From sequence record MW250785: DNA of 64,000 nucleotides; one strand, 5' to 3'. Shown one piece after another: positions 8,532 to 60,348 of this stretch; position 1 is the stretch's first letter; each line of letters starts with the position of its first letter. The notes under the pieces were generated by a model that made no database searches, was not told the DNA's origin, and worked only from the letters and a program-made list of their open reading frames with translations. The translations under genes and the position numbers were made by a program. The DNA is from Escherichia phage UPEC03.

Positions 8532-8608
8532 GGCCCTTTAGCTTAATTGGTTAGAGCGGGTGACTCATAATCGCGCGGTTGCTGGTTCGAATCCAGCAGG
8601 GGCCACCA
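8532..8608 (+). tRNA. tRNA with CAT anticodon (Ile2-type or Met)
   Basis: hand-folded cloverleaf: acceptor GGCCCTT/AGGGGCC, D-arm with GG, anticodon loop CTCATAA, T-loop TTCGAAT, 3' CCA encoded; close to E. coli ileX as recalled. Confidence 0.75.
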
Positions 8609-8613
8609 AATAC

Positions 8614-8689
8614 GCAGGTGTAGTTCAATTGGTAGAATATCTGGTTTCCATCCAGATTGTTGAGGGTTCGAGTCCCTTCACCTGCTCCA
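8614..8689 (+). tRNA. tRNA-Gly (anticodon TCC)
   Basis: hand-folded cloverleaf: acceptor GCAGGTG/CACCTGC, anticodon stem TCTGG/CCAGA, loop TTTCCAT, T-arm GAGGG-TTCGAGT-CCCTT, CCA encoded. Confidence 0.8.
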
Positions 8690-9874: not shown

Positions 9875-10237
9875 ATGAAAGCATATCAGATTTTAGAAGG
9901 TTTACACACTGGTACAATCTACCTGGAAGAAGGTAATGATGTTCGTGTGGTGGTATCCAAAACCCTCGAAATGGATTCAGTGATCGGTAAAGCTCGCGTT
10001 GCTCCATTCGCAAAACGTGAAGTCGATATTGAATTTCAACCCACTGTTAAAGTGGAAGGTGGACAACACTTAAACGTAAACGTGTTGCGCCGTGAAACTC
10101 TGGAAGACGCTGTGAAGCATCCAGAAAAATACCCACAGTTAACGATCCGTGTGTCCGGCTATGCAGTGCGTTTCAATTCACTGACTCCTGAACAACAGCG
10201 CGACGTTATCGCCCGAACCTTTACAGAGAGTCTATAA
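9875..10237 (+). CDS. autonomous glycyl-radical cofactor (GrcA/YfiD-like, T4 Y06I-type)
   Basis: 120 aa; glycyl-radical motif RVSGYAVRF; C-terminal ~60 aa appear identical to enterobacterial GrcA as recalled. Confidence 0.85.
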
Positions 10238-10518
10238 TGGCGATTGAAGACGTACAGGGCTATAAGCCCCATTCAAAAGAAAAGATCGACAAAGTAAACC
10301 ACATCAAGGCCGCTGAAATTGCCCTGGGCGAAATCTTCAAAGAACTGGATGAAGAGTATTCAAGCGATTACGCGGTATCAGATACCGATTCATTCACCAC
10401 AGAAGAACTCGATGCGATGCTTGAACGTGTCCATCAAATCCAACTGGCGAAAGACCGACTGAAAGAAGCCTCTATGTGGGCGTGTCGTGCGGTGTTCCAG
10501 CCAGAAGAAAAGTATTAA
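10237..10518 (+). CDS. hypothetical protein
   Basis: 93-aa ORF, ATGA-coupled to the GrcA-like gene. Confidence 0.55.
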   Translation: MAIEDVQGYKPHSKEKIDKVNHIKAAEIALGEIFKELDEEYSSDYAVSDTDSFTTEELDAMLERVHQIQLAKDRLKEASMWACRAVFQPEEKY

Positions 10519-10522
10519 AATC

Positions 10523-10553
10523 CAGCCGTTGCCGAAAGGTAGCGGCTTTTTTC
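10523..10553 (+). terminator. probable terminator
   Basis: imperfect hairpin agccg...cggct followed by ttttttcgttttt. Confidence 0.45.
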
Positions 10554-10573
10554 GTTTTTATGCAAAATAATGC

Positions 10574-10602
10574 TTGCACTGAATCAGGCTTTCTTGTATC
10601 TT
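10574..10602 (+). promoter_or_regulatory. candidate promoter
   Basis: TTGCAC, 17-nt spacer, TATCTT; preceded by aaTGCTTgca (MotA-box-like); upstream of RBS tgaggatga. Confidence 0.4.
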
Positions 10603-10643
10603 TAACCACGTAGGCAAGACAACTTAACTTTGAGGATGACATT

Positions 10644-10937
10644 ATGAAAACTTACAACATGAAAGAACTGGTTTGCTTCAACACTCGTCGTGAAGCCCGT
10701 GCGTATGTTCTGGCGGCTGGTAAGAATACCTCTGCTGTAATCGACCTGGGTACTGATAAAGCTGTTGGCGCACGTTGGGCTGCTGTTGTGGTTATCGCTG
10801 CTCCTGTGACTCCTGTTAAAACTCTGGTTCTGGGTGCGCGTAAAGCCGAAACTCTGAAAACCAGCACTTGCGGGGCGGGTGGTGTTCATAATGTTACGGT
10901 CATTCGAAAAAGATCTTTTAATCGAGTCGGTGTATGA
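10644..10937 (+). CDS. hypothetical protein in a locally GC-rich segment
   Basis: ORF with RBS gagga; region open in three frames on both strands; 3' extent uncertain. Confidence 0.4.
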   Translation: MKTYNMKELVCFNTRREARAYVLAAGKNTSAVIDLGTDKAVGARWAAVVVIAAPVTPVKTLVLGARKAETLKTSTCGAGGVHNVTVIRKRSFNRVGV

Positions 10938-11027
10938 AGGTATACGGGGAAAACATAAAGAACAATCTCCGAAGAGATTGATGTAATCAATGAATTTCTA
11001 TGTAGACCATACGTTAAGAGAGTTATT

Positions 11028-11468
11028 ATGAATATTGGTAGTGGTGATTCATACCCATCATGCGCATTGAGCAACTTCGCCCCGCATCCGTTTACGTTTG
11101 ACGGGGTAGAATGTGCATCAATGGAGGGCTTTTTACAAAGTCTGAAATTCAGCAATCCAGATATGCAAGCGCATGTGTGTACGCTGGTTGGTAAAGCCGC
11201 CAAGTTCAAAGGCAAGAAAAAGAAATGGTATCGCGATCAGACCCTATACTGGAAGGGTATGCCGATTCACCGTGAATCAGAAGCATATCAAATCCTGATT
11301 GAAAACGCGTACAATGCTCTTTTCCTGAATGACGGGTTCCGCCGTGCGCTGGCTGCAACCGGAAAAAGTACCTTGACTCATTCAATGGGAAAGAATAAGA
11401 TGAATGAAACGGTACTCACTGAACGTGAGTTTGTCCGAAATTTAACCCGATTGAGAGATCTGTTATGA
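11028..11468 (+). CDS. NADAR-domain (YbiA-like) protein
   Basis: 146 aa; NADAR signature ALSNFAPHPFTFDGVECASMEGFLQSLKF. Confidence 0.6.
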   Translation: MNIGSGDSYPSCALSNFAPHPFTFDGVECASMEGFLQSLKFSNPDMQAHVCTLVGKAAKFKGKKKKWYRDQTLYWKGMPIHRESEAYQILIENAYNALFLNDGFRRALAATGKSTLTHSMGKNKMNETVLTEREFVRNLTRLRDLL

Positions 11469-11743
11469 TAGGTTATAAAGATTATGATGAAAGAGTAGAA
11501 TGCGCGTTCCTGTTCAAAGGCGCGATTAACCCGTTGGCATTACTCCACGCACAGGGTGCTTTGAGTTCTACCCTGATTATGGGTGTTATCTACAAAGCAG
11601 GTGTGTATTACGTTACCATCGGCGCAAACAACATTAACGTGATCAACAGCTACGTTGAAAAATGTAAGCTGAAAGATATTGTGTTCGATAAAGTCGAAAT
11701 GGATGTTCCAGGCTTCGACGCTGTTTATATGTACAAGGGCTGA
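11465..11743 (+). CDS. hypothetical protein
   Basis: ATGA-coupled 92-aa ORF. Confidence 0.5.
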   Translation: MIGYKDYDERVECAFLFKGAINPLALLHAQGALSSTLIMGVIYKAGVYYVTIGANNINVINSYVEKCKLKDIVFDKVEMDVPGFDAVYMYKG

Positions 11744-11745
11744 TA

Positions 11746-11991
11746 ATGAGTTACGTAATTTATTTCGATTGTTCGGATCTTGATCCTTTCGTTCTGCAAC
11801 AGGCAAAGAAATATCATCAAGATATCACTGGTATCAGTGTCACGAACGATGATATGCTGTGCATCGAATTTGATTATTATCGTACATTTGAGCGTGACAA
11901 ATTCCTTGCGGATATTGAAGCGTTTAAAGTACCCTTTTCTTTGATCGTTATGAGGTTAAATCTTGAAACCAGTTATTCTTACCGACATTGA
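11746..11991 (+). CDS. hypothetical protein
   Basis: 81-aa ORF. Confidence 0.45.
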   Translation: MSYVIYFDCSDLDPFVLQQAKKYHQDITGISVTNDDMLCIEFDYYRTFERDKFLADIEAFKVPFSLIVMRLNLETSYSYRH

Positions 11992-12568
11992 CGGGATCGC
12001 CGTAAAATGGCAGTCGGGGTTGCCGTTCTTTTTGTCTAAACACAACATGCCGACCGATATCGCGCTGGATATGGTTACGGATGAAAAGTTCCGCGATATG
12101 ACCGAAATCTTCGGGTGTGATCACCAACTGGCGAAAATTCTCATGGAAGAATACAACAACAGTTCGTTTATTCGCTATCTAAGCGCGTATGACGATGCGT
12201 TAATTGTTATCAACCGTCTGAAAGCCAAATATGATTTTGTGGCTGTCACGGCGCTGGGAACCACTCCTACGGCAAGCCTTAACCGTATTGCAAACCTGAA
12301 CACGCTGTTCCCTTCTGCATTCAAAGAGGTTTGTGTTGTCGGTCACGGCGAAACGAAAGTACATCGTTACCTGGAAGCCAAAGCAAAATATGGCGATCGT
12401 TTAGTATGTTTCATTGATGACCTTGCAGTAAACTTGAATGAGTGTCATAACGTCATCAGTCAGTTGCCGTTATTCCATATGTTGCGTGGCGAACGTAGTG
12501 AACCGAGTGTACCTCATACTAAAGTGAATAACTGGCATGAAATTGAAAAAGCAATTGAGAACTCTTGA
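11963..12568 (+). CDS. HAD-superfamily hydrolase
   Basis: HAD motif I LTDIDGIAV; TTG start with RBS tgagg. Confidence 0.55.
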   Translation: MKPVILTDIDGIAVKWQSGLPFFLSKHNMPTDIALDMVTDEKFRDMTEIFGCDHQLAKILMEEYNNSSFIRYLSAYDDALIVINRLKAKYDFVAVTALGTTPTASLNRIANLNTLFPSAFKEVCVVGHGETKVHRYLEAKAKYGDRLVCFIDDLAVNLNECHNVISQLPLFHMLRGERSEPSVPHTKVNNWHEIEKAIENS

Positions 12569-13088
12569 TGAAGAAACGCAAGGTATAGAAAACCTACTAC
12601 AATGTATTCGAGTAGAACCAGAAACCGGAAAATGTTTCTGGTTGGAAAAGAGAAGTAATAAAATTCCTGCTGGAAGTGAAGCAGGTTCTTTTCATAAATC
12701 AAGTGGATATACGCGAATAAAATTCGAAAATGCGATGTACATCCGGTCACGGGTGATATTTTATTACGTTAATGGTTATCTTCCAGTGATGGTTGACCAT
12801 GTTCACGGTGTTGAATGCGGTGATATGATTTCTAATCTAAGGGAGTCCAATCAGGTAACAAATCAACAAAACCGCACACGGAATAAAAATAATACCGTTG
12901 GGTTTAAGGGCGTGTCATTCAACAAGAAATCGCAAAAATATAGCGCCAAAATCACTTTACATGGAGTGACTAAGTGGTTAGGATTTTATGATTCTGCCGA
13001 GGAAGCAAGTGAAGCATATAAGGCCAAAGCACTCGTTTCCTTTACACATAATGAAAGGTACTTAAATGATCTTACAGATTCTAAATGA
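12537..13088 (+). CDS. HNH homing endonuclease with AP2 DNA-binding domain
   Basis: HNH core VDHVHGVECGDMISNLR...N; AP2-like GFKGVSF...YSAKITLHG...GFYDSAEEASEAYKAKA; paralogous to ORFs at 30224 and 44376. Confidence 0.7.
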   Translation: MKLKKQLRTLDEETQGIENLLQCIRVEPETGKCFWLEKRSNKIPAGSEAGSFHKSSGYTRIKFENAMYIRSRVIFYYVNGYLPVMVDHVHGVECGDMISNLRESNQVTNQQNRTRNKNNTVGFKGVSFNKKSQKYSAKITLHGVTKWLGFYDSAEEASEAYKAKALVSFTHNERYLNDLTDSK

Positions 13089-26016: not shown

Positions 26017-28263
26017 TTAGATTTTGACTTCTTTTTCTTCCAGGACGATTTCACATTCGAATGATGTGGTTTCCCAGACTTTCCAGAAATCGGATGGAAT
26101 ATTATCTTCTTTCGGAAGAATATCTTTTGCAGCGATAGAAACTTTGGTTTCTTCGAAGTCCAGATCCGCGAACCATGCATGGGCTACTACAACACCGTAC
26201 ATTACGCGACTTAAACGGGCATTCAGTTTACGGACTTCCTGAATCGTTGCCTTTGTCTGCTTATCAAGATACTCGACTACCTGATCTTTGTCAAGCGCAT
26301 CCAGTTCAGATTTCACCTGATCGTAAGCCCACAGGATAATCAGGTCGCCGTTGTTCAGTTTCTTCTTACCTTCGTCACGTTTCGCGACGGTAGCCGCTAC
26401 AGCAGGAAGGGAGGAAACACCCTTGACTTTCACGTTCAGTTCTTTCGACATGTAAACATCAGTCGATTCTGTGCGCTCAACCTTCGGAGAGAACCCGTAA
26501 TCACGAATATCCTGTTCAGACAGCCATTCACCCGCTGCATCACCAAAGCGCTGTTTCAGCCCTTCTGCGTTGCGCAGTCCGATCGCGTTGTCACGGAAGA
26601 ACTTCATAACCTTCTGACGGCCTTTCAGGATTTCCAGACGCACGTTATCAGTCACGAACTCTTTACCGCTTAACCCGCGAGTCATGCCACGGTTAACCAG
26701 AGGCAGAGAGGTAAAGTCTACCAGTACCGACATACGGTCATCACCGATTTTTTCCAGCGGCTTGATAGTCAGGCCAGAAGCGCGAAGGTTTTTCAGTGTC
26801 GGAATATCAGTTTCCAGCGGCAGAACTTTCACGTTCACGATACCATCTTTAACGATGGTGAAGTTACGCACCTGCTTAGTTTCGATTTTTTCCGGCAGAC
26901 CGAATTCTTTCTGTTTGCTTTCTGGGATAGTCACATACCCTTCCAGATCCGTGTTGATGGAAATGTTAGGACGGGAACTGTTACCCACCAGATGTTTAAC
27001 CGATACTTTGGTTGTGGTCTGGGTAAATTTCGGTGTCCAGACTTCATGCGCTACCATTTGCGCCGCCAGTGCTTTACGTTCTTCTGGGATTGCAGCGTTT
27101 GCGATCTGTTCGGTCAGTTGATCCAGTGTATCATCTTCTTTCTGTACAGTCTGACGGCCTGTGCGGTTATACGCCCAGTGCTCAGAAGACAGGTCGATCA
27201 CTGTGTCAGTTTGTGCCAGCAGTTCGAGCGCATCAACCAGAGTGAACGCGTTTTCGTCTGGAACCATGTTGTAATCAATACCATCAACGAAACGCTGTGA
27301 TGGATCTACAACAGCCTGTGCAATCAGGTCTTTCGCGTTGGAGTAGTCCTGTTTGGTAAAGCAGTTGTCATACGCCTTGATCAGACGGACATCACCCAGC
27401 TTTTGAAGCACTTTCCATGCCAGATCAGGGTTCATTGTGTGCAGTGCATGATAAAGCACGACATACAGAACTTGCTGTTCGCTGGCGATGTTCGGATCGA
27501 ATCCGTCAACATCATTAATCGCGTTTTCACCCAGCGCCCAGATGTTTTTGATGTGTTCTGGAACTAGCACAACACCGTTTGCAGCGTTCAGGACATACAC
27601 GCACCCTTCGTCCAGGTAGATCGCATGGGTAGCATCAGCAACTTTGACTTCGATACGCGCGGAAGTCTGCGCGGTGATGATTTCGTTAAATGCTGGTTCG
27701 TATGCGTCGAAACCTTCAACGAATTTGTGCAATGCGTTGGTTGCTTCTGCCATTTTTTCCAGCAGAGGACGGTTTACATAATAACCGTATTCCAGGAACG
27801 CGATACTGTTGAAAGTCAGTGGCAGAACCGCACACGCTTTCAGAATATCATCGGTACGCCAGCAGTTATCATAACCATCAGTCAGGAAGATCAGGCTGTT
27901 CAGGTTGCCGTTTTCAGATTGCAGATCGGTAGCGATTTCCGCAGCCAGATTCAACGGCTCAACAAAGCCAGTACAACCCGTAGGTTTCAGGTAACGGTCG
28001 ATAGCCGCGCAGATGTTAGACAGGTCAGAGACATTGCTAACCTTCTCACCACGGAACACCGTGCCGTAATCGCCTTTGCTGGAGAAGTACAGGATCGAAA
28101 CGGTGTCATCCTGTTTAACCAGACTCGCCAGATTTGCTTTCAGGTGTTTACGGATCTTAGGCAGTTCGTTGTACATTGAACCGGATACGTCACACACGAA
28201 AACGTGGTTTGTCGGGGTTGGCTTCGATACAGCGTTTTTGAATTCGATATTTGTGATTGACAT
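26017..28263 (-). CDS. von Willebrand factor A (vWA) domain protein
   Basis: 748 aa; N-terminal MIDAS motif VFVCDVSGSM and later FLTDGYDN; long C-terminal region with no motif recognised. Confidence 0.7.
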   Translation of the reverse strand: MSITNIEFKNAVSKPTPTNHVFVCDVSGSMYNELPKIRKHLKANLASLVKQDDTVSILYFSSKGDYGTVFRGEKVSNVSDLSNICAAIDRYLKPTGCTGFVEPLNLAAEIATDLQSENGNLNSLIFLTDGYDNCWRTDDILKACAVLPLTFNSIAFLEYGYYVNRPLLEKMAEATNALHKFVEGFDAYEPAFNEIITAQTSARIEVKVADATHAIYLDEGCVYVLNAANGVVLVPEHIKNIWALGENAINDVDGFDPNIASEQQVLYVVLYHALHTMNPDLAWKVLQKLGDVRLIKAYDNCFTKQDYSNAKDLIAQAVVDPSQRFVDGIDYNMVPDENAFTLVDALELLAQTDTVIDLSSEHWAYNRTGRQTVQKEDDTLDQLTEQIANAAIPEERKALAAQMVAHEVWTPKFTQTTTKVSVKHLVGNSSRPNISINTDLEGYVTIPESKQKEFGLPEKIETKQVRNFTIVKDGIVNVKVLPLETDIPTLKNLRASGLTIKPLEKIGDDRMSVLVDFTSLPLVNRGMTRGLSGKEFVTDNVRLEILKGRQKVMKFFRDNAIGLRNAEGLKQRFGDAAGEWLSEQDIRDYGFSPKVERTESTDVYMSKELNVKVKGVSSLPAVAATVAKRDEGKKKLNNGDLIILWAYDQVKSELDALDKDQVVEYLDKQTKATIQEVRKLNARLSRVMYGVVVAHAWFADLDFEETKVSIAAKDILPKEDNIPSDFWKVWETTSFECEIVLEEKEVKI

Positions 28264-32164: not shown

Positions 32165-33162
32165 TTGTAATACCCCACAACATGATCGCGGTATACGCGT
32201 TCGATGAAATCGTTCCAGAATTCGCGGTCAACTTCTTTCGGATATGTTGAAATCGCTGCAAGCCGTTCGACTTCGCCCATGACTTCTTCCAGCTTTTCCT
32301 GTACGGTTGCGAACGGTACGCCGCCAGCTTTAACCAGTTTCAGGAATGCGCTATCAGGCAGAGGATAAACGATATCACCATCTTTGTAAATCTGGATCAA
32401 CTGCATACCACCGCGCAACGCGTGACTTAAAGCCTTCCAGTCGATGCCGTTGTTGGCTTCTGCTTGTCGTGCGCGTTCTCCGTATTCATCCCAGAGTTTG
32501 TACACTGACTTACGCATTTCATCGGCTTTGATCGTGAACTGGAATTTACGCCCCAGCACTTCATAGAAGTCCTGACAACCAGATTTCATTGTCGTGTCGG
32601 TAACGAATCGGCAGAACTCGTTTGTAGGGAAACGATTCTTGATGTCAGACACTTTCACTTCACGCGTATAGCGTTTCATATCTGGTGTGAATTCCTGAAT
32701 ACCACCGATCGTTTCGGTTTCTTTCAGTACATCGACAACTTCGCGCAGTGCAGCCAGTCGGGAACCTTTCACACCATATTTTGCGGCTTGCTTGCGAACA
32801 TAACCGAACAGGCCAGTTAGTTCAGTGGTGTAAAAACGCCAGCGGTTAGCGCGGATATACTGCCAGATTTCAGAGTTAGCGATCAGCTTGTCATCCGAAG
32901 CGTGAAGCATATCGAGCGCTACGGTATCACCATCACACGCAAGGCTGATAAACTTAGTCAGACTATACAACTGACGATCAACGTCGTCTACGGTGTTTTT
33001 AGAGCTTTTATCGCCCGTGCTGGTGTCGATAGACTTCTTCGCAGTGCCTAACAGGATTTCGCGAGGATGAGGGAGATAGATCCCTTTGTAGTCTTTATCG
33101 CTTGTTGGTGTTTCCAGTCCGTAAAGATGGGATCCAAAAATCATTTCAGTAATCATTTTCAT
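32161..33162 (-). CDS. nucleotidyltransferase (pol-beta superfamily) of unknown specificity
   Basis: GS-x10-DxD signature FGSHLYGLETPTSDKDYKG; start moved to ATG 33162, which has RBS ggag and a TAATG overlap with the upstream stop. Confidence 0.55.
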   Translation of the reverse strand: MKMITEMIFGSHLYGLETPTSDKDYKGIYLPHPREILLGTAKKSIDTSTGDKSSKNTVDDVDRQLYSLTKFISLACDGDTVALDMLHASDDKLIANSEIWQYIRANRWRFYTTELTGLFGYVRKQAAKYGVKGSRLAALREVVDVLKETETIGGIQEFTPDMKRYTREVKVSDIKNRFPTNEFCRFVTDTTMKSGCQDFYEVLGRKFQFTIKADEMRKSVYKLWDEYGERARQAEANNGIDWKALSHALRGGMQLIQIYKDGDIVYPLPDSAFLKLVKAGGVPFATVQEKLEEVMGEVERLAAISTYPKEVDREFWNDFIERVYRDHVVGYYK

Positions 33163-33920
33163 TATACAAATCTCCAATAAAACCCTTTATGAGTTTTTCT
33201 TTTACCGTTACAGCATGAACTTACATGCCCTTTGTTATACCCCATTTCAACGGCTTCCACAATACCACCATTTAAAATAGTTTCTCTTTCTGTTTTGATA
33301 CATTTCATAATCAAAGGTTTTATCAATTCCGTCTTCTTTTGTGAAATATTAGCTAATGCAATTACATTTCTGATATCAGATTCACTCATTAAATCAGAAA
33401 TCTTCTTTCTTAACCATACATAGCCTTGACTTTTGGCAAGTTTGCCGGAGCAACATTCATGAATATGACTAGGGTTAAATCCACGCAATTTCATTTCTTG
33501 CCGACCGCCTAATATGATAATCTCGTCTCCTGTTTCAAGGTTGAATCCGACAACTGGAATTATTTGCCGTTCCGACATTTTCTTTCTCGCTTCTTTCGTG
33601 AATATTGTAAGAGATTTTAATTTTCTCGCGTCGCTCATTTGCGAAGATGTCGTTTTGTATTTCTTAGTATTATGAGACATACGGAAAAAAGCATATCTCA
33701 TTTTATCACCAGCATACTTAGCAAGTAGATGATGAGCAAGATAATGCTCTTTATATGTTAAATATACTAAATTTTCGGGTTCATCAGTACCACCTAATGA
33801 CTTAGCAACGATATGGTGTATATCATAACCGCGCTTTCTATACTTTTTCGAGTAACCTTTAGGTATATCTCTTCTTTTTGCCAATGTAATTAGTTGGTCG
33901 TAAATACGCTTATAGTTCAT
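33162..33920 (-). CDS. HNH homing endonuclease (Mob-like family)
   Basis: HNH motif YDIHHIVAKSLGGTDEPENLVYLTYKEHYLAHH; start at internal ATG 33920 with RBS ggag; paralogous to ORF 61728..62396. Confidence 0.65.
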   Translation of the reverse strand: MNYKRIYDQLITLAKRRDIPKGYSKKYRKRGYDIHHIVAKSLGGTDEPENLVYLTYKEHYLAHHLLAKYAGDKMRYAFFRMSHNTKKYKTTSSQMSDARKLKSLTIFTKEARKKMSERQIIPVVGFNLETGDEIIILGGRQEMKLRGFNPSHIHECCSGKLAKSQGYVWLRKKISDLMSESDIRNVIALANISQKKTELIKPLIMKCIKTERETILNGGIVEAVEMGYNKGHVSSCCNGKRKTHKGFYWRFV

Positions 33921-34050
33921 ACACTCTCCTTTAGGCGTATTTATCACTTAAAATCCGAACACGGTTTCCATAATCATTTTCATCAGAATTCAACCTTTAA
34001 TGTTTTTGCGATCCCGCGCAATTCCGCGGTAGTAATAACAGGGATCATAA

Positions 34051-34547: not shown

Positions 34548-34603
34548 TATATAATACAAAAGCCCTCACGCGAACGCAAGGGCTTTTTTAATCTTTTATC
34601 AGA
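34548..34603 (-). promoter_or_regulatory. PeSL-like stem-loop/promoter cassette
   Basis: minus-strand reading: aaaaaagccc-TTGCGT...-gggctttt hairpin, TATTAT, ACACATACCGCATGAA leader. Confidence 0.5.
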
Positions 34604-35666
34604 GTCCCGTGAAAGCTACAACGATTTGATAGTGGTCATCGAAGAATTCCCCTTGTCGTTGTACGACCTCATGTAAGGGCATCCAGAACGCCTCTAACGC
34701 ATCGTCAGAACCGCCCATAATGCGGGGCAGACTACCATCATTGTTAGGCTCTAACTTGATGTACTGCGCCACAGTCGGTTTTGAGAAGTGTACGGAACGC
34801 TTCGGATGATCGAACAACATCGAATTGCGGATTGAACCACGGATAACCTTTTCAGGAACCTTGATCCGTACCTCTTCGAGCAGTTCGCGGATCGCACAAT
34901 CCAGGAACGTTTCATTTGCGTTTTTGTGTCCGCCGGGAAGGGCTAACGCGTCTTTACCTGGGGCGAACTTACGACGAATTACCAGCAGGTGATTGTTGCA
35001 CACAACCACACTATCACCCGTGCAACAGTTTAGCGCGTCGGGGTATGGGTAGTTTTTGAATTTCTCCAATTCGCTTTCCCATTTCTCGTATTCGTAGAAT
35101 AAACGCCAGAACGTGTCTTCCATCATCCATTTGTCGATATAATCAACGGTTGCTTGAGGAACAAAGCGCAACAGTTTCTTATCCCACCCGTTTTTATGGT
35201 TAAAGATAATCGGACGCAGATCGGTTGCTGATAGATCCTTGCCGTTAATCTGGACAGGTGGAACTGGTACGTGTGTCCATCCGAACGCTTTAAGCCAGTA
35301 TGAACCTGCATCTTTTTCGTAACCGTAGATAGCGATTTTGTCGCCTTTGGTTTCCCTGATAGCAGTACGAACAGAGGTTTTCCATTTCTCTTCGTTGTAA
35401 AGATAATCTGGAATGTGCTCAAACTGAACACGAACAACATCTTCGATCGGGAAGTTAGCGTTTAACCATGAGAAGATCATGGTTTGACGCTCACGCGCCG
35501 TCAGCGGGTTTAAAACGTTAGGGTAAGCATATGCTGAACCCAGAAGGATGTAAACGATCTTTGCTTCTCCGAGTGCTTTACGCACCATTGCTGCATGACC
35601 ATTATGGAAGGGTTGGAATCTGCCAATTACGACAGCTTTATCAAATTGTTTCATAACGTGCTCCAC
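34599..35666 (-). CDS. bifunctional NMN adenylyltransferase / Nudix hydrolase (NatV/NadM-like)
   Basis: 355 aa; HxGH motif GRFQPFHNGH at the N-terminus; C-terminal Nudix box GGHKNANETFLDCAIRELLEEV. Confidence 0.8.
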   Translation of the reverse strand: MEHVMKQFDKAVVIGRFQPFHNGHAAMVRKALGEAKIVYILLGSAYAYPNVLNPLTARERQTMIFSWLNANFPIEDVVRVQFEHIPDYLYNEEKWKTSVRTAIRETKGDKIAIYGYEKDAGSYWLKAFGWTHVPVPPVQINGKDLSATDLRPIIFNHKNGWDKKLLRFVPQATVDYIDKWMMEDTFWRLFYEYEKWESELEKFKNYPYPDALNCCTGDSVVVCNNHLLVIRRKFAPGKDALALPGGHKNANETFLDCAIRELLEEVRIKVPEKVIRGSIRNSMLFDHPKRSVHFSKPTVAQYIKLEPNNDGSLPRIMGGSDDALEAFWMPLHEVVQRQGEFFDDHYQIVVAFTGL

Positions 35667-35827: not shown

Positions 35828-36754
35828 TTATTTACGAGAATCGAAAATCACTTTACCAGCGTAATCAGAACCCATGACAGTTTGAGGTACACCGCCCTGA
35901 TATTTTTCCGCGATGGTCTGCTGAACATCAAGTTCTTTCCAGCGAATCATTTCTGGTGTAATGGTACGCTGCAACACGGCGTTCGCTTCGGCTTCTTTCT
36001 TAGCCGCATACAGACGGGCATCAGCATCACGCTCGTTAGCCTGTGCAGCATTGCTACGGGCTTCTTTATCGGCAATTGCCTGAACAACTGCCTGTTGAGC
36101 GATTTGCTCTTTACGTGCCAGTTCTGCTTTCTCTGCGTTCACCTGTTCTTCACGAATTTTCGTGTTTTCAACCTGCTTCTTGATCGCTTCCGGCAGGTCG
36201 ATATCCTGCAAGAATACCTGTTTCACGGTGTAACCGTAAGGGCGGGCATACTCTTCAACTTCCTGCTGGATCGCGATCTGTAGCTGGCTTTGAACTTCTG
36301 CATTATACAGATCCTGTGCTTTCGGTACAGATTTACCGAACTCACGGACAGTTGACAGAAGTTTTTCAGTCACATATTTATCCAGCGCCTGATCCTGACT
36401 ACCCGCATTGATACGGTTGATCGGGGCTTTGCTACCATCGAACTGTAACATCACGGTCATATCCACAGTGGATTTGAATTTATCCTGGGACGGAACCTGC
36501 AATTTGTCAAACTTCATTGCGATGTCTTTGGTGTTGAACACCTCGAAATCAGCCAGTGGATTTACCAGGTGGAAACCAGGCAGAACAGGCTTCGGTGAAA
36601 CTTTACCCATGAAGGTTTGAGTTTTTACCGTACCATCCTGAACGATAGTGTACGAGTTCGGAACCAGCCACAGAGCGGCGATTACGCCCAGAGCGATCAG
36701 TGTGGTTTTCTTCGGGTTGTTTACGATAGTGTTTAAGTTCATCATTATTTCCAT
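35828..36754 (-). CDS. SPFH/band-7 (prohibitin/HflC-like) membrane protein
   Basis: N-terminal TM helix, SPFH-like core, Ala/Gln/Glu-rich coiled coil; exact start uncertain (ATG at 36754, 36745 or 36742). Confidence 0.65.
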   Translation of the reverse strand: MEIMMNLNTIVNNPKKTTLIALGVIAALWLVPNSYTIVQDGTVKTQTFMGKVSPKPVLPGFHLVNPLADFEVFNTKDIAMKFDKLQVPSQDKFKSTVDMTVMLQFDGSKAPINRINAGSQDQALDKYVTEKLLSTVREFGKSVPKAQDLYNAEVQSQLQIAIQQEVEEYARPYGYTVKQVFLQDIDLPEAIKKQVENTKIREEQVNAEKAELARKEQIAQQAVVQAIADKEARSNAAQANERDADARLYAAKKEAEANAVLQRTITPEMIRWKELDVQQTIAEKYQGGVPQTVMGSDYAGKVIFDSRK

Positions 36755-38023: not shown

Positions 38024-38608
38024 TTAACAGTTCAGACCAACATTATCAAGAAGTTTTTCGTGATAATGTTTGCGACAGAGCGAAACGTATTTGTCTTCGG
38101 CTCCGATCTCAACCTGCGCCCCTTCGGTTACGAAGTTGCCTTGTGCGTCGATACGTGCAACCGTAGTTGCTTTACGCCCACAGTGACACATTCCGCGCAG
38201 TTCTCGGATCTCGTCTGCCCAGGCCAGCAACCAGTAAGAACCCTCGAACAGATTCAACTGAAAATCAGTACGCAGACCGTAAGCCATTACAGGGATTTCG
38301 AGTTCATCAACAACGCGACATAGATCGAAAACGTTTTTCTTCGAAAGGAATTGCGCCTCGTCAACGAAGATGCAAGCAATTTTATTCCGGCGCTGAATGT
38401 CCCAGAACAGATCCATATCAGGCGCAATCAATTCACACTTTTCGTTCAGCCCGATACGCGAACTCACTGTGTTTGATGTGCGGGTGTCGATTGCTGGCTT
38501 ATAGATTACAACTCGCATACCGCGCTCTTTGTAATTGTGCGCGTCCGTCAATAGTCGCGCACTTTTGCCAGCGTTCATGGATGCATAGTGATAATACAAT
38601 TTAGCCAT
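38024..38608 (-). CDS. tk: thymidine kinase
   Basis: P-loop ASMNAGKSA; motifs VDEAQF, YGLRTDF, CHCG..., SLCRKHY; start at internal ATG 38608. Confidence 0.85.
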   Translation of the reverse strand: MAKLYYHYASMNAGKSARLLTDAHNYKERGMRVVIYKPAIDTRTSNTVSSRIGLNEKCELIAPDMDLFWDIQRRNKIACIFVDEAQFLSKKNVFDLCRVVDELEIPVMAYGLRTDFQLNLFEGSYWLLAWADEIRELRGMCHCGRKATTVARIDAQGNFVTEGAQVEIGAEDKYVSLCRKHYHEKLLDNVGLNC

Positions 38609-38882
38609 TGACACGCTCCACAAACTTAATATGATTCTGGAATTTGCCCTCACCTTCATGGTTTTTGCATGTTTTGTTTGAACAGTATATCCACCAATCC
38701 CACTCGTCGTAAGGGGGTTTGTCAATGTTCATGACGCAAATCAAAGGAAAATGACAATCCCGACAACGAACTTTTTCTATAATGTGTGCGTTAGCCAATT
38801 GAAAACCATCCTTTACCCATGAGTTTTTCATTATGTCGCGCAAGATGCTCTTTGATTTCCGGTATCTGGATAGCAATATCAT
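38601..38882 (-). CDS. hypothetical Cys-rich protein
   Basis: ORF with CRDCHFP...CSNKTCKNH; start uncertain. Confidence 0.45.
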   Translation of the reverse strand: MILLSRYRKSKSILRDIMKNSWVKDGFQLANAHIIEKVRCRDCHFPLICVMNIDKPPYDEWDWWIYCSNKTCKNHEGEGKFQNHIKFVERVNG

Positions 38883-39006
38883 ACTCTTCTTTCGTCATAG
38901 TATGATTTGCGCAACCCATACACCCGCACACCTGCGCGTTACACCAACGGAGTGTTCCGTATGTCGCAATCACCTTCATTGCTTTAGCTTTGATTTTGTC
39001 AGTCAT
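38791..39006 (-). CDS. hypothetical Cys-rich protein
   Basis: 71 aa with WCNAQVCGCMGCANH. Confidence 0.45.
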   Translation of the reverse strand: MTDKIKAKAMKVIATYGTLRWCNAQVCGCMGCANHTMTKEEYDIAIQIPEIKEHLARHNEKLMGKGWFSIG

Positions 39007-39211
39007 GATTAGCTCGCTCCACCGCTACCGCATCACGAACAGCATCGGTGATTTCATTTTCAACGAAATCCAGGATATCCGCTGTAATATCGTCGATACA
39101 GGATTGATTGTAGTTACGTGAATCAGGATCATCATCTTCGGCATAATCCTGATACGCTTCGCCCAGTTGTTTCAGCTTGTGTTTTAACAGCTTTTGTTCT
39201 TGCGGTCTCAT
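38999..39211 (-). CDS. hypothetical acidic protein
   Basis: 70-aa ORF. Confidence 0.45.
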   Translation of the reverse strand: MRPQEQKLLKHKLKQLGEAYQDYAEDDDPDSRNYNQSCIDDITADILDFVENEITDAVRDAVAVERANHD

Positions 39212-39705
39212 GATAAATCCGCCTTATGTGGATCAACCGATGGATCGAAGTGAACAACGATGATTGGATAATCACCCGTACACTCGTCGATAATGGCGCT
39301 AATACGCAACCAATCGCCACCAGCAAGCCCCGCACCGATAAGAGGGGTAATGATAGGCAATTTTTCAGGAAACGCACTGGCGCGTTCTACGGCGCTCACA
39401 AAGCATGATCGGATTGCGTCATAATCCACTTGCGGGCCAGTACCCCAGAATTTAAACTGAGTGTAGGCATTGAAGACAATCTGACCTTCTTCCGTCATGT
39501 AGATGGAGTTAGTGCCTAACTTACGCTGGTCTCCTTTCATCGTCAATGCATCAATTTTGAACGCACCAGGGATTTTGTGCTTCACTTCTTTAGCAATACC
39601 CGCACCCATGTTGCAATAACAGTTACACCCATGAATCAAGTGTACTTTTCGTTTCAGGAACAACTCTACAGCGTTCCCTTTGATTTCTTTAATAATCATT
39701 TTCAT
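39208..39705 (-). CDS. macro-domain protein (ADP-ribose binding/processing)
   Basis: glycine-rich macro motifs NMGAGIAK and IGAGLAGGDW; ATG at 39705 preferred over the track GTG start. Confidence 0.65.
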   Translation of the reverse strand: MKMIIKEIKGNAVELFLKRKVHLIHGCNCYCNMGAGIAKEVKHKIPGAFKIDALTMKGDQRKLGTNSIYMTEEGQIVFNAYTQFKFWGTGPQVDYDAIRSCFVSAVERASAFPEKLPIITPLIGAGLAGGDWLRISAIIDECTGDYPIIVVHFDPSVDPHKADLS

Positions 39706-39787
39706 CACCTGTATAGTGGCGGTAAGCCAGCACAGCCAGCCCCGCGATCACAACAATAACACACATTAAGATATAACCTGTGTTCAT
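39689..39787 (-). CDS. small TM peptide (32 aa)
   Basis: hand-found ORF MNTGYILMCVIVVIAGLAVLAYRHYTGDENDY, ATGA-coupled on both sides. Confidence 0.35.
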   Translation of the reverse strand: MNTGYILMCVIVVIAGLAVLAYRHYTGDENDY

Positions 39788-48391: not shown

Positions 48392-48684
48392 CAGAATGTG
48401 ATCTCCGCAAACTGCATTCTACGCTCAATCGCATGGATAGCGTTATCACGCTGTTCTTTGTTTTCATATCCAGCCCAGGTAATCGGAGTTGAACAGATCA
48501 GGTGAAAAGTGATTGCTGGGTGTCTCTTCCCTTCAACAACGATTGTTGCATCATCTTCGATCCAGGTTACGTGATCCAGATTCACCGGATAGTTTCTTAC
48601 GGTAACAGTTTCACCAACCATAGGCGACACGTCCAGAATATCACGATCACGAACGTATGATTTAATACGAGATACGATTAACAT
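48391..48684 (-). CDS. hypothetical protein
   Basis: 97-aa ORF. Confidence 0.5.
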   Translation of the reverse strand: MLIVSRIKSYVRDRDILDVSPMVGETVTVRNYPVNLDHVTWIEDDATIVVEGKRHPAITFHLICSTPITWAGYENKEQRDNAIHAIERRMQFAEITF

Positions 48685-49838
48685 TATTTCAACTCCACTG
48701 CATATACATCGGTTTCAGGGGCTTTGTGTACGCGCATATCTTTACCACATACCGCATAAGCCGGACAGTTACGGCAACCGTTATGATCCTTGTTGCCCGT
48801 CAGTTCTTTACGGAACTGTTTTGTTTTCGGGTGTTCCCAGATATCCTTCACAAAATCTTCGGCTTCCAGAACATCCAGACCTTCTTCCCAGCCACCTTCA
48901 ACCCAACGTTCGGTAAACGAGCAAGGGAAGAACTGACCACGTTCATTAATGTAAGAGCTAAACATCGTCGCTTCACAGTCTTCGGCGTATTGCTTGTACT
49001 GTTCGAAGTTCGGGTGTCCCTCCATCGCTTCAACGAAAGCGGGGGCTGAACAGCTATCGAATCCAAATCCTACACCAGAATCGAGGCAATATTCAACAAG
49101 TTTTTTATATTGTTCGCGGGTAACGGTGTCCCAGTTCTTACCGCGTCCTTTTTGTTTCAGTCCCAGGAACACGATCGCGTTGACTTGTTTCAGGCGCGGA
49201 TCATTCTTCACGGCATCAACCACGTTAAACGCATCATCATAGGTTTTCGAGCTAACCATGAAGTGAAGGTTGATTTGCTGTTGTCCGGCTTCTGTCAGGT
49301 TCGCTACTGAGTCGAAAGCGACATCAAAACCAGCGTGTTTATAAACCGATACCGCAACAGCCCCAGCAACCGCCGCTAAACGCGCTGCAACGTCTTTTGA
49401 TACGTCAGCAATGGTAAGGTTCGGTACAATGCCTTTAGAACGCGCATACGCCATCATATCGAACATATCAGGGTTTGTTTGCCCCTGTGCATCAGCACCG
49501 AGTGCGCATTGAGTCAGCCAGGGCATTTTGTCGATGATTTTTTTGAAGTTGGCAAGATCCATGTTGAACCCGTTAGGGTTATTGGACTTGTAGCAGAACC
49601 CGCAGAGTTTACCAGCGGGACCATTACATTTGGTAGTGATCTCAACATCCAAGATTTCTGGGAATGGGGCATAGGTAGGATCAGTTTCGAACGATGTTCC
49701 CCAGCGAGCAAACTCACCAGTTTTAACGTTGAAATTGTAGTTGTACCAATTAGAGCGAGCGAAGCGCATATTACCCTGCTGGTAAATCATTAGCGAAGGG
49801 GCTTTCATTACAGTCTGTGCGCGGTCAATAATATCCAT
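48684..49838 (-). CDS. putative Fe-S / radical-SAM-like enzyme
   Basis: 384 aa; Cys cluster TTKCNGPAGKLCGFCYK (Cx7CxxC) near the N-terminus and C-terminal GCRNCPAYAVCG. Confidence 0.4.
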   Translation of the reverse strand: MDIIDRAQTVMKAPSLMIYQQGNMRFARSNWYNYNFNVKTGEFARWGTSFETDPTYAPFPEILDVEITTKCNGPAGKLCGFCYKSNNPNGFNMDLANFKKIIDKMPWLTQCALGADAQGQTNPDMFDMMAYARSKGIVPNLTIADVSKDVAARLAAVAGAVAVSVYKHAGFDVAFDSVANLTEAGQQQINLHFMVSSKTYDDAFNVVDAVKNDPRLKQVNAIVFLGLKQKGRGKNWDTVTREQYKKLVEYCLDSGVGFGFDSCSAPAFVEAMEGHPNFEQYKQYAEDCEATMFSSYINERGQFFPCSFTERWVEGGWEEGLDVLEAEDFVKDIWEHPKTKQFRKELTGNKDHNGCRNCPAYAVCGKDMRVHKAPETDVYAVELK

Positions 49839-53932: not shown

Positions 53933-54315
53933 TTAGGCAATGCCCCGAAAGACAGCAGCCCCATACGATGATCGTTATCTGATTCACCAGTGCTGAATTC
54001 AAATTCTTCACCGCTGATACTGATAGCGCGGAAACCGTCTTTCAGGTATGGCAACAGATACAGAGGGATCAGCATCATGTTTGAATCGTCGCTCCACTTA
54101 CGGAAGCCCAGATTTTTCATTTCTTCCAGCGTCAAATCATTCGGATCGACGGGTTCGAAATCAGGGGAAGCGTAAAGGCGTCCAGGCAGATCGCGAATAT
54201 TTTTCACGGTGAATGAATCACCCCAGGACTGATACACGGTAGGTTCAGCGGCGCGGGTTGCGGTAGCCAGGAGGATCATTTGACAGATTTGAAAAGTTGT
54301 TGCTTTTGGTTTCAT
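53929..54315 (-). CDS. hypothetical secreted protein
   Basis: N-terminal signal-like sequence. Confidence 0.5.
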   Translation of the reverse strand: MKPKATTFQICQMILLATATRAAEPTVYQSWGDSFTVKNIRDLPGRLYASPDFEPVDPNDLTLEEMKNLGFRKWSDDSNMMLIPLYLLPYLKDGFRAISISGEEFEFSTGESDNDHRMGLLSFGALPK

Positions 54316-54725
54316 GATGTATATCCCACAAGTTTAGTCAGTAAATTCCCCATAGTCTTACGCGCATGATCGCGGATCTGGCTATACGGAACATATTTGA
54401 AGTCATCCATTTCAGTAATGGTTCGACCATTTTTAACGAAGGTTGAAGCACAAACACATTTTTCTGCTTCGGGGTAATTATTACCCACATATACGAATAA
54501 CACAAGCTCTTTTTTACTCGTATAATCAATCAGACCCAGGCTCAACAGTTCGTGTTGTTCAACTACAACGCCCGTTTCCTCGAAGCATTCACGGATAGCA
54601 GCATTGATCGGGGATTCGCCTTTTTCGATATGCCCCTTTGGGATGTCCCAATGAGGCGTTTCGGTTGCGTGGCCCATTAAAACGCTGCCGTTATTCAGGA
54701 AGAGAATACCAGCAGACCGTTCCAT
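54312..54725 (-). CDS. Nudix hydrolase (NudE-like)
   Basis: perfect Nudix box GHIEKGESPINAAIRECFEETGV. Confidence 0.8.
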   Translation of the reverse strand: MERSAGILFLNNGSVLMGHATETPHWDIPKGHIEKGESPINAAIRECFEETGVVVEQHELLSLGLIDYTSKKELVLFVYVGNNYPEAEKCVCASTFVKNGRTITEMDDFKYVPYSQIRDHARKTMGNLLTKLVGYTS

Positions 54726-56510: not shown

Positions 56511-56585
56511 GATTGCCTCCTTTGTTTCGACACCCCTAATATAACAAAAGCCCCTGCACGAATGCAAGGGCTTTTTTCAAATATT
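56511..56585 (-). promoter_or_regulatory. PeSL-like stem-loop/promoter cassette
   Basis: minus-strand reading: aaaaaagccc-TTGCAT...-ggggctttt hairpin, TATATT, leader GGGGTGTCGAAACAAAGGAGG. Confidence 0.5.
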
Positions 56586-57134
56586 TTTCAACATGTGTAG
56601 TTGAGGCGGACAATCTTTTGAAGCAATCAGGCGATCCAGGCGTGACATAACGCGTCTGTAGCCGTCATACTCGAACTTGATTTTAGGTGCGATGTAATTA
56701 ACATGGATCGCGTTTCGCGTGTTCAGGCTCAATGTATACTCAGGGATAACGGTTCGGAATCGTACAGCAATCACTGGCTTTTCGTGAGCAATAGAATCAT
56801 CCATGTTTTCAAACATCTGGACGGTGAACGCACAGGCAAACACTTTGCCATTGATCCGGCGATATGCAATGACTTCCTGCATACCTTCGTTTTTCGCTTT
56901 CACCGCGTAATGCAGAACGTTACACGAATAATGTTTAGCGAGACTATTAAGAATTTCACTGTAGATCGCAAAGTCTTTTTTGACTGACGCGGAACGATCC
57001 AGGAATCGGTCTGCGATGTGATCTGTAGTCATTGAAACCTTTGTCACATACCAATCACTTAACGCTTTACTGAAATTTTGGTTAACTTCTCTGCGTAAGT
57101 TATTGATAACATACATCAATCGTGCTCTGTTCAT
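56577..57134 (-). CDS. hypothetical protein
   Basis: 185-aa ORF. Confidence 0.55.
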   Translation of the reverse strand: MNRARLMYVINNLRREVNQNFSKALSDWYVTKVSMTTDHIADRFLDRSASVKKDFAIYSEILNSLAKHYSCNVLHYAVKAKNEGMQEVIAYRRINGKVFACAFTVQMFENMDDSIAHEKPVIAVRFRTVIPEYTLSLNTRNAIHVNYIAPKIKFEYDGYRRVMSRLDRLIASKDCPPQLHMLKNI

Positions 57135-57137
57135 AAA

Positions 57138-57761
57138 TCACCCATTATGTTTGAAGTATTCGATCTGACGCAGACGTTTTTCTGCTGCCTCTTTCGAATC
57201 ATATTCACCAAGTTCTTTCGTGCGATCATGGTTCAGCACAACCCACTTATCGCCGCGATGTTCGATGTGCTCCGTGATGTCTTCAACTTTCTTATCAAGA
57301 TCCAGCGGTTCAGCATCTTCCTCGATAATAGTCAAATCTACGGGCAGTGTCAACAGTCTTTTAACTCCGCTGATATCTTCGATGCGGGAATCATATGCGA
57401 GCGTTACGTGTGGTTTGTAATCGTCATAATCGTATGTTGCTCCAGCATCCATTGCATCTTTGAAGCGGCTATGGAGATAATCAGATTCCAGAACGCCCAC
57501 GATCGTATTACCGTATTTCGTTTCCCACTTCTCCACGTCAACCAGTCGGGCAGGTTCAGAGATACCGGAGGCAGGGAACAGATCAACCGTCTTACGGCTA
57601 TACACAATCGTTGTATGCAGTTTTGCAGCGGAAACAGGATTCTCTACACCCAGAAGTTTTTGCACCTTCGCGAGCGCTTCACAGGAAGCCTGATCGAACT
57701 TCGCACACATATAGATCCCCGGATCAACTACGGGTTTCGCTACTTCAATAAAACTTTTCAT
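57138..57761 (-). CDS. 57B: 2H phosphoesterase family protein (57B-like)
   Basis: two H-x-T motifs (LHTTIVYS, PHVTLAYD); lies downstream of 57A as in T4. Confidence 0.6.
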   Translation of the reverse strand: MKSFIEVAKPVVDPGIYMCAKFDQASCEALAKVQKLLGVENPVSAAKLHTTIVYSRKTVDLFPASGISEPARLVDVEKWETKYGNTIVGVLESDYLHSRFKDAMDAGATYDYDDYKPHVTLAYDSRIEDISGVKRLLTLPVDLTIIEEDAEPLDLDKKVEDITEHIEHRGDKWVVLNHDRTKELGEYDSKEAAEKRLRQIEYFKHNG

Positions 57762-59395: not shown

Positions 59396-59562
59396 TTTTA
59401 TATATAGAGAAAACAGTACATTTCCGTATACTTTTTATACAATCGTTAACTATCCGTCTTCGCTTCGCTTGACGGAACTCGCTTCGCTCGCGATCTAATT
59501 TTTAGTTGATCTATTCAATAAATAGGTATATCATACCTATACTTTCAAAAGAGATTGAAAAC

Positions 59563-60348
59563 ATGAAATCATTCAAAGAACTACTTTCTGAATCTGTTCA
59601 GAACAAAAAATTTGCTAAGACCGTTGATCTGGTTGACCGTGGTAACGCTGCAAAAGGTCAGATCGGTTTCCTGCATTTTGCACATGGTGCTGATTACGAT
59701 GTGTATGCGCCGGACTCCCACGATCTCGCTTACTTCGGTAAAGGTGTTGTCCGCCTGAAAGGTAAAACCACTGGTAAGACTCAGGCAGCGTATATTGACT
59801 GGGCGAAAGGCACTGTTTCATTCTACAGCGGTGATCCTGCTGACGATCTGAAATTTGACAAGCCACTGAAATTCAAAGGCGCTTCCCTGTACAAAGAAGC
59901 CGAAGAAAACCTGGATCTGTACAATCAGTTGGCGGAAGATTTCGAGATTGATCTGCCTCTGGATGAAGCATTGGTGAAAGGAAAGGTGTACAAGCTCCCA
60001 AGTAACGATATGTGCTTGCTGTATACCGGACGTACCAAAACCAAAGAAACAGGTGAATACGCCGTGTTTACGGTTGTAGATGCCTCTGGTAAGCCTCGTC
60101 TGGTATCGGGTAAACGCTTTACCCAGGAATACAAAGGTGATGTTCTGTCTAAACTGGTTCTAGCTGAATCAGAAGATTTGAACGAAGCCGCTAAAGATAT
60201 TCGCGAAAAAGTTATTGCGGTGTTGGTGAAACGTGGGTTTAACGAAAAAGACGCAGAAAAGATGGTTGATAAAAACCTGAAAGATGCGATGAAGGTTCGA
60301 CCTGGCGCAACCCCTGGCAAACTCGCGGAAATCGTGAGTATCCTGTAA
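59563..60348 (+). CDS. putative internal (capsid-packaged) protein with capsid-targeting-like N-terminus
   Basis: N-terminus MKSFKELLSE resembles the T4 internal-protein targeting sequence MKTYQEFIAE; start taken at ATG 59563 (RBS gagattgaaaac), not track start 59506. Confidence 0.45.
   Translation: MKSFKELLSESVQNKKFAKTVDLVDRGNAAKGQIGFLHFAHGADYDVYAPDSHDLAYFGKGVVRLKGKTTGKTQAAYIDWAKGTVSFYSGDPADDLKFDKPLKFKGASLYKEAEENLDLYNQLAEDFEIDLPLDEALVKGKVYKLPSNDMCLLYTGRTKTKETGEYAVFTVVDASGKPRLVSGKRFTQEYKGDVLSKLVLAESEDLNEAAKDIREKVIAVLVKRGFNEKDAEKMVDKNLKDAMKVRPGATPGKLAEIVSIL

Follow-up and report, generated by a model that had tools for sequence, protein, structure and literature searches.

The gene at 11028..11468 of the 64,000-nucleotide stretch of Escherichia phage UPEC03 (sequence record MW250785) that was analyzed in the present work, and that is called the window below, is an ortholog of phage T4 gene 30.3 whose product has the NADAR fold, the catalytic residues of the phage NADAR family and an intact C-terminal helix. 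It is very likely the AdfN of the RB16 lineage (Pseudotevenvirus), a stand-alone minimal NADAR N-glycosidase which erases the guanine adducts made by the DarT1 toxin. This reading is preferred because E33, K40 and H118 are kept together with the complete C-terminal helix, and because the function of T4 gp30.3 has been published. The features of the gene and of the endonuclease gene nearby are as follows.

11028..11468, plus strand: gp30.3/AdfN ortholog, a minimal NADAR-fold protein with putative ADP-ribosylglycohydrolase activity, as predicted from T4; 146 aa, ATG start, TGA stop
11124..11147, plus strand: codons from E33 (11124-11126) to K40 (11145-11147), equivalent to the catalytic pairs E36/K43 of T4 AdfN and E48/K55 of YbiA
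11379..11381, plus strand: codon of H118, which aligns to T4 H123 and occupies the third catalytic position
11421..11462, plus strand: C-terminal helix, residues 132-145, assigned by DSSP on the predicted model; intact
12537..13088, plus strand: HNH homing endonuclease (phrog_99, E=1.4e-51; RB16 label “homing endonuclease RB16 4”)

The open reading frame had been picked out earlier, from the letters of the DNA and its translated frames, by the string LSNFAPHPFTFDGVECASMEGFLQSLKF; it exists as that sequence-only reading described it, encodes 146 residues and holds the string at residues 14-41. Its ATG is preceded by a ribosome-binding-like sequence, AAGAGAG. The product matches the Pfam family PF08010 (Phage_30_3) over model positions 2-138 of 138, at E=5.9e-56, its 188.5 bits exceeding the cutoff of 36; it falls in PHROGs family phrog_652, to which no function is assigned, and the corresponding RB16 gene is labelled “30.3, gp30.3 conserved hypothetical protein”. 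A tblastn search with the product finds homologs in 1507 phage records, nearly all of them T4-superfamily myoviruses, and a large protein database contains 4449 matching proteins; grouped at 50% identity, the homologs make up 1453 clusters in a library of 1.84 billion proteins. This confirms a real and conserved gene, with a match far past chance. Within the family the product clusters with proteins of T4-like phages of Klebsiella, Enterobacter, Cronobacter, Aeromonas and Vibrio (65-100% identity), and not with those of the T-even phages.

The “clear NADAR/YbiA-like signature” that the sequence-only reading had seen in this product is borne out by profile-profile alignment with hhalign, by the fold and by the E33/K40 pair, but not by the generic Pfam NADAR model, PF08719, against which the product scores 14.3 bits (E=0.049) and so stays below the cutoff of 35.1. 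Profile searches had been proposed as the check on both the NADAR and the macro-domain assignments, and only the latter, which is taken up below, passes its threshold. By the sequence-only reading's own criterion for refutation, a NADAR match short of significance in a profile search, the result with PF08719, like the sub-cutoff match to TIGR02464 and the empty searches of the PDB, would by itself have refuted the assignment. It is outweighed by three stronger tests, namely the fold, the YbiA profile and the catalytic residues; the phage NADAR clade has a Pfam model of its own in PF08010, and another member of the gp30.3 family (P0345) does match PF08719, at 1.6e-4. Among the solved structures of the PDB, a sequence-only search with the single protein found no NADAR, and a search with a profile of 33 sequences likewise found none and returned only chance defensin matches with E values of 0.3 or worse, so that a comparison of folds was needed. 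The product has the NADAR alpha+beta fold, with a helical core and small beta-hairpins at the flanks, and the profile built from the 33 homologs aligns with E. coli YbiA in hhalign at E=8.7e-5, which places LSNFAPHPFTFDGVECASMEGFLQSLKF opposite FSNFAAWPIKVDGKTWPTSEHYFQAQKF.

The NADAR motif E-x(2)-F/Y-Q-x(2)-K-F contributes a catalytic Glu and a catalytic Lys, both of which are present in the product; E33 and K40 align with E36 and K43 of T4 in the pairwise comparison and with E48 and K55 of YbiA in the hhalign comparison. The third catalytic residue of the superfamily, which lies in the last strand, is His in the phage (gp30.3) NADARs, Glu in the YbiA type and Asp in the DarG1 type (PMC11125620, PMC12945103). 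The hhalign match stops one column short of H118; continued by that column, it pairs H118 with YbiA E125. All three residues (E33, K40 and H118) are invariant in the alignment of 33 homologs, and the alignment of the product with T4 gp30.3 reaches the last residue. The fold and the active site thus make the protein a member of the NADAR superfamily, and its sequence assigns it to the gp30.3 family.

Orthology to T4 gp30.3 is given by an identity of 42% from end to end (E=1e-35; 146 versus 152 aa) and by a gene order common to both phages, in which 30.3 is followed by 30.2 and then by the DNA ligase gene 30. The NADAR nature of gp30.3 was predicted bioinformatically by De Souza and Aravind in 2012. 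Cihlova et al. 2024 found that T4 gp30.3 cleaves guanine-ADP-ribose on DNA in vitro and that it gives no rescue from DarT1 toxicity in uninfected cells (PMC11125620), and guanine-ADP-ribosylated RNA has also been reported as an in vitro substrate of the T4 enzyme (PMC11833690). A further study credits it with guanine-ADP-ribose activity and includes it in a list of NADARs that fail to reverse cytidine-ADP-ribose (PMC12945103). Its role in infection comes from Johannesman et al. 2025, in which the DarTG1 resistance of T2 and T4 was mapped to 30.3 and the gene was renamed adfN; AdfN, for anti-DarT factor NADAR, is both necessary and sufficient for the T-even phages to resist DarTG1, strips ADP-ribose from DNA purified out of DarT1-expressing cells, and has no effect against DarTG2 (all PMC11825919). 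Most activity is lost in the mutants E36A and K43A, and the natural allele of RB69, in which a frameshift removes the last 15 residues, is inactive, AdfN being impaired without its C-terminal helix (PMC11825919). In a transposon screen of T4, insertions in 30.3 were lost on a DarTG1 host (preprint 10.1101/2025.11.20.689424).

By analogy with the T4 enzyme, the UPEC03 product would remove ADP-ribose from guanine in DNA, and in RNA under in vitro conditions, and would serve against DarTG1, a function presumed to carry over across 42% identity. In an infected cell that carries DarTG1, the DarT1 toxin would ADP-ribosylate phage DNA at guanine (N2) and thereby block its replication; the helical pocket of AdfN would take up the ADP-ribose moiety by means of Glu33, Lys40 and His118, and hydrolysis of the bond between the ribose and the guanine would make the template replicable again. 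In effect, the phage would carry an orphan equivalent of the DarG1 antitoxin. The suggestion of the sequence-only reading that host ADP-ribosylation is being countered is supported in this respect by the work on the T4 ortholog, and DarTG, which it had named as a challenge, was the correct choice.

Among known systems, the closest comparison is T4 gp30.3/AdfN itself, which shares with the UPEC03 protein the PF08010 family, the catalytic Glu/Lys/His, the C-terminal helix and three structural neighbours, and whose gene likewise lies upstream of 30.2 and the DNA ligase gene; it differs in that the 30.3-30.2-30 block of UPEC03 is interleaved with two small ORFs and a homing endonuclease gene. The antitoxin of DarTG1, DarG1, which is itself a NADAR protein (for example that of Geobacter lovleyi, PDB 8bat, or that of E. 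coli C7), is also among the closest known systems, and has Asp where the UPEC03 protein has His118. E. coli YbiA (PDB 2b3w, PF08719), an N-glycosidase of riboflavin intermediates, has Glu125 at that place and a different biological role. The AdfN proteins of Bas32/Bas33 and Bas60-62 are orphan NADARs of phages, as this one is, and have been found to counter DarTG1, but they are described as belonging to other NADAR clades, as independently acquired, and as effective without the phage context (PMC11825919).

The locus itself is arranged as follows. The stop codon of 30.3 overlaps the start of the next ORF (ATGA, 11465-11468). Where 30.2 lies directly 3' of 30.3 in T4, two small, unrelated plus-strand ORFs intervene here, 11465..11743 (phrog_7604) and 11746..11991 (phrog_6222); both belong to families without a function and have no Pfam match. 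The HNH gene sits between 30.2 and the DNA ligase gene 30, and overlaps at both of its ends. Upstream, a small ORF at 10644..10937 separates the 30.3 gene from an intrinsic-terminator-like hairpin at 10524-10547. A promoter scan around the gene was uninformative, with 5 sigma-70-like sites against 4.4 expected, and a MotA-like box, TGCTT at 10572, was rejected as a canonical T4 middle promoter because its 18-nt distance to the possible -10 element is too great.

T4 AdfN is fully effective only in the course of T-even infection and performs poorly for non-T-even phages, which implies a T-even co-factor (PMC11825919). Given this need for a phage factor, it is conceivable that the two small ORFs encode partners of the NADAR protein. 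It is also possible, though unlikely, that the RB16-type AdfN differs in function from its T4 counterpart, in that it acts autonomously without a T-even co-factor, or depends on the products of 11465..11743 and 11746..11991, or accepts a wider range of substrates; the grounds for this are the 42% identity to T4 and the fact that neither dCMP hydroxymethylase (gene 42) nor glucosyltransferase genes are annotated in the RB16-type lineage.

A second and rather doubtful alternative is that the main substrates of the enzyme are not DNA adducts at all, but guanine-ADP-ribosylated RNA or soluble immune signals and toxins derived from ADP-ribose, in which case defences other than DarTG1 would be the ones blunted. 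The clearance of guanine-ADP-ribose from RNA by the T4 NADAR in vitro (PMC11833690) and the weakness of T4 AdfN as an antitoxin outside infection are consistent with it, as is the argument of Iyer et al. 2022 that the Macro, NADAR and Nudix proteins of phages, which co-occur in large phage genomes, are mostly aimed at low-molecular-weight ADP-ribose derivatives (PMC9503650). Some members of the gp30.3 family are moreover fused to domains unrelated to DNA, which suggests that the family may reach beyond DNA repair. On the other hand, DarTG1 sensitivity is the sole genetic phenotype so far in T4, the T4 enzyme does de-ADP-ribosylate DNA from DarT1-expressing cells, and the demonstrated substrates of phage NADARs do not include a soluble one.

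The gp30.3-type NADAR domain occurs inside larger proteins in P0244, P0292, P0317, P0341 and P0296, and the larger relatives include tandem NADAR copies, which number three stretches in the homolog search and two by Pfam. The fusion partners are Lgt, BspA-type LRRs, a GDSL/SGNH hydrolase and a membrane domain resembling FtsW/RodA, whose match (E=3.3e-5) does not reach the Pfam cutoff. These fusions could be genuine and hint at non-DNA substrates, or they could be products of gene-calling read-through on metagenome contigs.

It is highly improbable that the protein is instead a YbiA-like N-glycosidase which clears reactive intermediates of the riboflavin pathway, in which case its gene would count as auxiliary metabolic and not as counter-defence. 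The match to the YbiA-type model TIGR02464 reaches 17.9 bits (E=0.0029) against a cutoff of 73.7 and covers 41 residues, the Glu that defines the YbiA family is replaced by His118, which is the hallmark of the phage clade, the demonstrated role of the T4 ortholog is the de-ADP-ribosylation of DNA, and no riboflavin genes were seen within the 64-kb window. That the enzyme reverses the work of the phage's own ADP-ribosyltransferases (of the Alt, ModA and ModB type), and so regulates host takeover, is barely credible, since no alt, modA or modB is annotated across the RB16 genome (hypothetical proteins aside), since the targets of NADARs are N-glycosidic base adducts and not arginine-linked protein ADP-ribose (PMC11833690), and since the T4 data indicate DarT1 adducts.

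With the product of 11028..11468 taken as the RB16-type AdfN, its relation to the other genes that had been grouped with it can be considered. The sequence-only reading had proposed a dispersed set of ADP-ribose-handling genes, of which the remaining four are these.

39208..39705, minus strand: macro-domain protein (Pfam Macro), ortholog of T4 Tk.4 (AdfM), of the TARG1/DarG/SCO6735 class
34599..35666, minus strand: bifunctional NMN adenylyltransferase/Nudix protein (NCBIfam and Pfam), similar to KVP40 NatV; candidate for the Nmnat half of NARP2
54312..54725, minus strand: NudE-type Nudix hydrolase (Pfam NUDIX E=2.5e-16; phrog_1185, nudix hydrolase, E=1.7e-57; RB16 nudE)
57138..57761, minus strand: Acb1, ortholog of T4 gp57B, 2H fold (PF23474 over residues 15-158, E=3.8e-49, 166.6 bits, cutoff 27)

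That the genes are dispersed is correct, but they are independent modules: the idea that the five form one system or operon was rejected, as distances of 2.4 to 23 kb separate them, both strands are used, and every one of them has its own counterpart in T4 or KVP40.

The macro-domain assignment stands, on the minus strand, which the sequence-only reading had left unstated: the product passes the Pfam Macro cutoff (27.6 bits against 22, E=3e-6), its best match in the defence libraries is PADLOC DarG (E=6.3e-8), and the NCBIfam model antitoxin_DarG matches at 2.2e-5, below its cutoff. T4 Tk.4 shares 36% identity with it (E=4e-30), and in both phages the gene lies in the rI-tk region. A profile of the macro family matches 2fg1 and 2afc (BT1257) at 8e-17, SCO6735 at 1.2e-14 and M. 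tuberculosis DarG at 5.6e-11, and also T. aquaticus DarG, Poa1p and TARG1; with the predicted model (pLDDT 89.6), Foldseek finds TARG1 at 7e-9 and DarG at 2e-7, within a range of 7e-9 to 4e-6 for TARG1, Poa1p and DarG. The catalytic Asn of DarG (N22 in T. aquaticus) is present as N28, and the position of its catalytic Lys (K80 in T. aquaticus) is occupied by Gln83, which lies in a YTQ motif and is invariant in the family. Gln at this position is common to the UPEC03 protein, T4 Tk.4, SCO6735 and BT1257, so that the chemistry may be that of SCO6735 and not that of DarG. SCO6735 is listed as a thymine-ADP-ribose hydrolase (PMC12945103).

T4 tk.4 has been named adfM, as its knockout makes T4 sensitive to DarTG2 (preprint 10.1101/2025.11.20.689424), and an analogous AdfM has been characterized in chimalliviruses; gp104 of the chimallivirus PhiKZ and T4 Tk.4 are, like the UPEC03 product, stand-alone macrodomains of the DarG/TARG1 class. 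The block that contains the macro gene, 38608..39776, has no megablast counterpart at the corresponding locus of RB16, which holds only about 290 bp, and it is 100% identical at the protein level in Cronobacter phage JC03. Because RB16 lacks the macro gene at this locus, the AdfM-like gene is a variable accessory within the phage group. If both assignments of function hold, AdfN and the Tk.4-like macrodomain would between them erase guanine-linked (DarT1) as well as thymine-linked (DarT2) ADP-ribose.

The NMNAT-Nudix fusion, which had been reported without a position, is located at 34599..35666 and is recognized by the Pfam models CTP_transf_like and NUDIX and by NCBIfam NF003786 (E=7.5e-74, 249 bits, under the 397-bit equivalog cutoff). 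In KVP40 the NARP2 pathway consists of Nmnat and Nampt, which rebuild NAD+ against NAD-depleting defences. No plausible Nampt candidate was found among the window ORFs of 250 aa or more by Pfam or RB16 annotation (59506..60348 has no assignment). In RB16, a gene beyond the counterpart of the window, RB16p239, is annotated as “putative nicotinate phosphoribosyltransferase”, a label known from the annotation only; RB16p058 (565 aa) was considered as Nampt and discarded, as it gives only a weak DnaJ-like match. The NMNAT-Nudix gene is adjoined by a gene for an SPFH/band-7 family protein (35828..36754, minus strand, Pfam E=2.6e-20).

The NudE-like gene is where it had been placed, on the minus strand, and to judge from its family matches it is an ordinary Nudix hydrolase. 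The substrates of T4 NudE are ADP-ribose, Ap3A and FAD.

For the supposed 2H phosphoesterase, the gene and the 2H fold are as described; the profile match identifies it not as a generic phosphoesterase but as Acb1, and hence as no handler of ADP-ribose. Acb1/gp57B is an anti-CBASS cyclic-nucleotide phosphodiesterase (preprint 10.1101/2025.11.20.689424). The UPEC03 protein is extended at its C-terminus by a module of about 50 aa (residues about 160-206, …GDKWVVLNHDRTKELGEYDSKEAAEKRLRQIEYFKHNG) which is absent from T-even Acb1, the T-even homologs aligning to residues 15-156 only; the module alone matches small proteins of unrelated phages, among them Klebsiella UPM 2146, Salmonella kage and VLCpiS13b. 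Directly downstream of Acb1 lies a 185-aa ORF with no Pfam family (56577..57134, minus strand), and the segment from about 56751 to 57250 has no match in RB16.

As a discovery these results carry small weight, since the gene family, the fold, the biochemistry and the anti-DarTG1 role are already known from the T4 ortholog (a prediction in 2012, biochemistry in 2023-2024 and the role in 2025), and the 30.3 protein itself was deposited long ago in GenBank under the name RB16 gp30.3, in a record whose genes are annotated one by one. Their practical use is in annotation. In most of the listed records of related Klebsiella, Enterobacter and Cronobacter phages the 30.3 and macro genes are called “hypothetical protein”, and in several of them Acb1 is labelled “RNA ligase” and the macro gene “phosphatase”. 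Recognition of AdfN, the AdfM-like macrodomain, Acb1 and the NAD+ salvage enzyme would aid in predicting which defences are evaded (DarTG1, DarTG2, CBASS and NAD+ depletion), a prediction that is relevant to candidate therapeutic phages of the RB16-like lineage.

The placement of the DNA in that lineage rests on nucleotide comparison. Over positions 10000-13000 it shows 98.5% identity with Escherichia phage RB16, a member of the Straboviridae (Pseudotevenvirus), and 96-98% with a set of phages of Klebsiella, Enterobacter, Citrobacter and Cronobacter. Over the whole window, megablast gives about 76% to 97% identity to RB16 within aligned blocks, together with several insertions and deletions, and because of this variation UPEC03 is to be seen not as RB16 but as a relative with a mosaic genome. 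The window agrees with the RB16 gene map, which runs from nrdA to 30.3, 30.2, ligase 30 and the baseplate genes, on to 57B, gene 1 and gene 3, and then to gene 5. Two tRNA genes are common to both phages.

8532..8608, plus strand: tRNA-Met (CAT), same tRNA in RB16
8614..8689, plus strand: tRNA-Gly (TCC), same tRNA in RB16

Several other genes of the window have recognizable features. The Vs.6 homolog (9875..10237, plus strand) has a glycyl-radical signature at its end, and the annotation given to it in related phages is autonomous glycyl radical cofactor (GrcA/YfiD-like), a replacement piece for pyruvate formate-lyase that oxygen has damaged. The product of 48684..49838 (minus strand) contains a SPASM iron-sulfur domain and has the RB16 label “putative radical SAM protein”, the 748-aa protein encoded at 26017..28263 (minus strand) has a von Willebrand factor A domain at its N-terminus, and 33162..33947 is an endonuclease-like ORF with an I-HmuI NUMOD-like domain.
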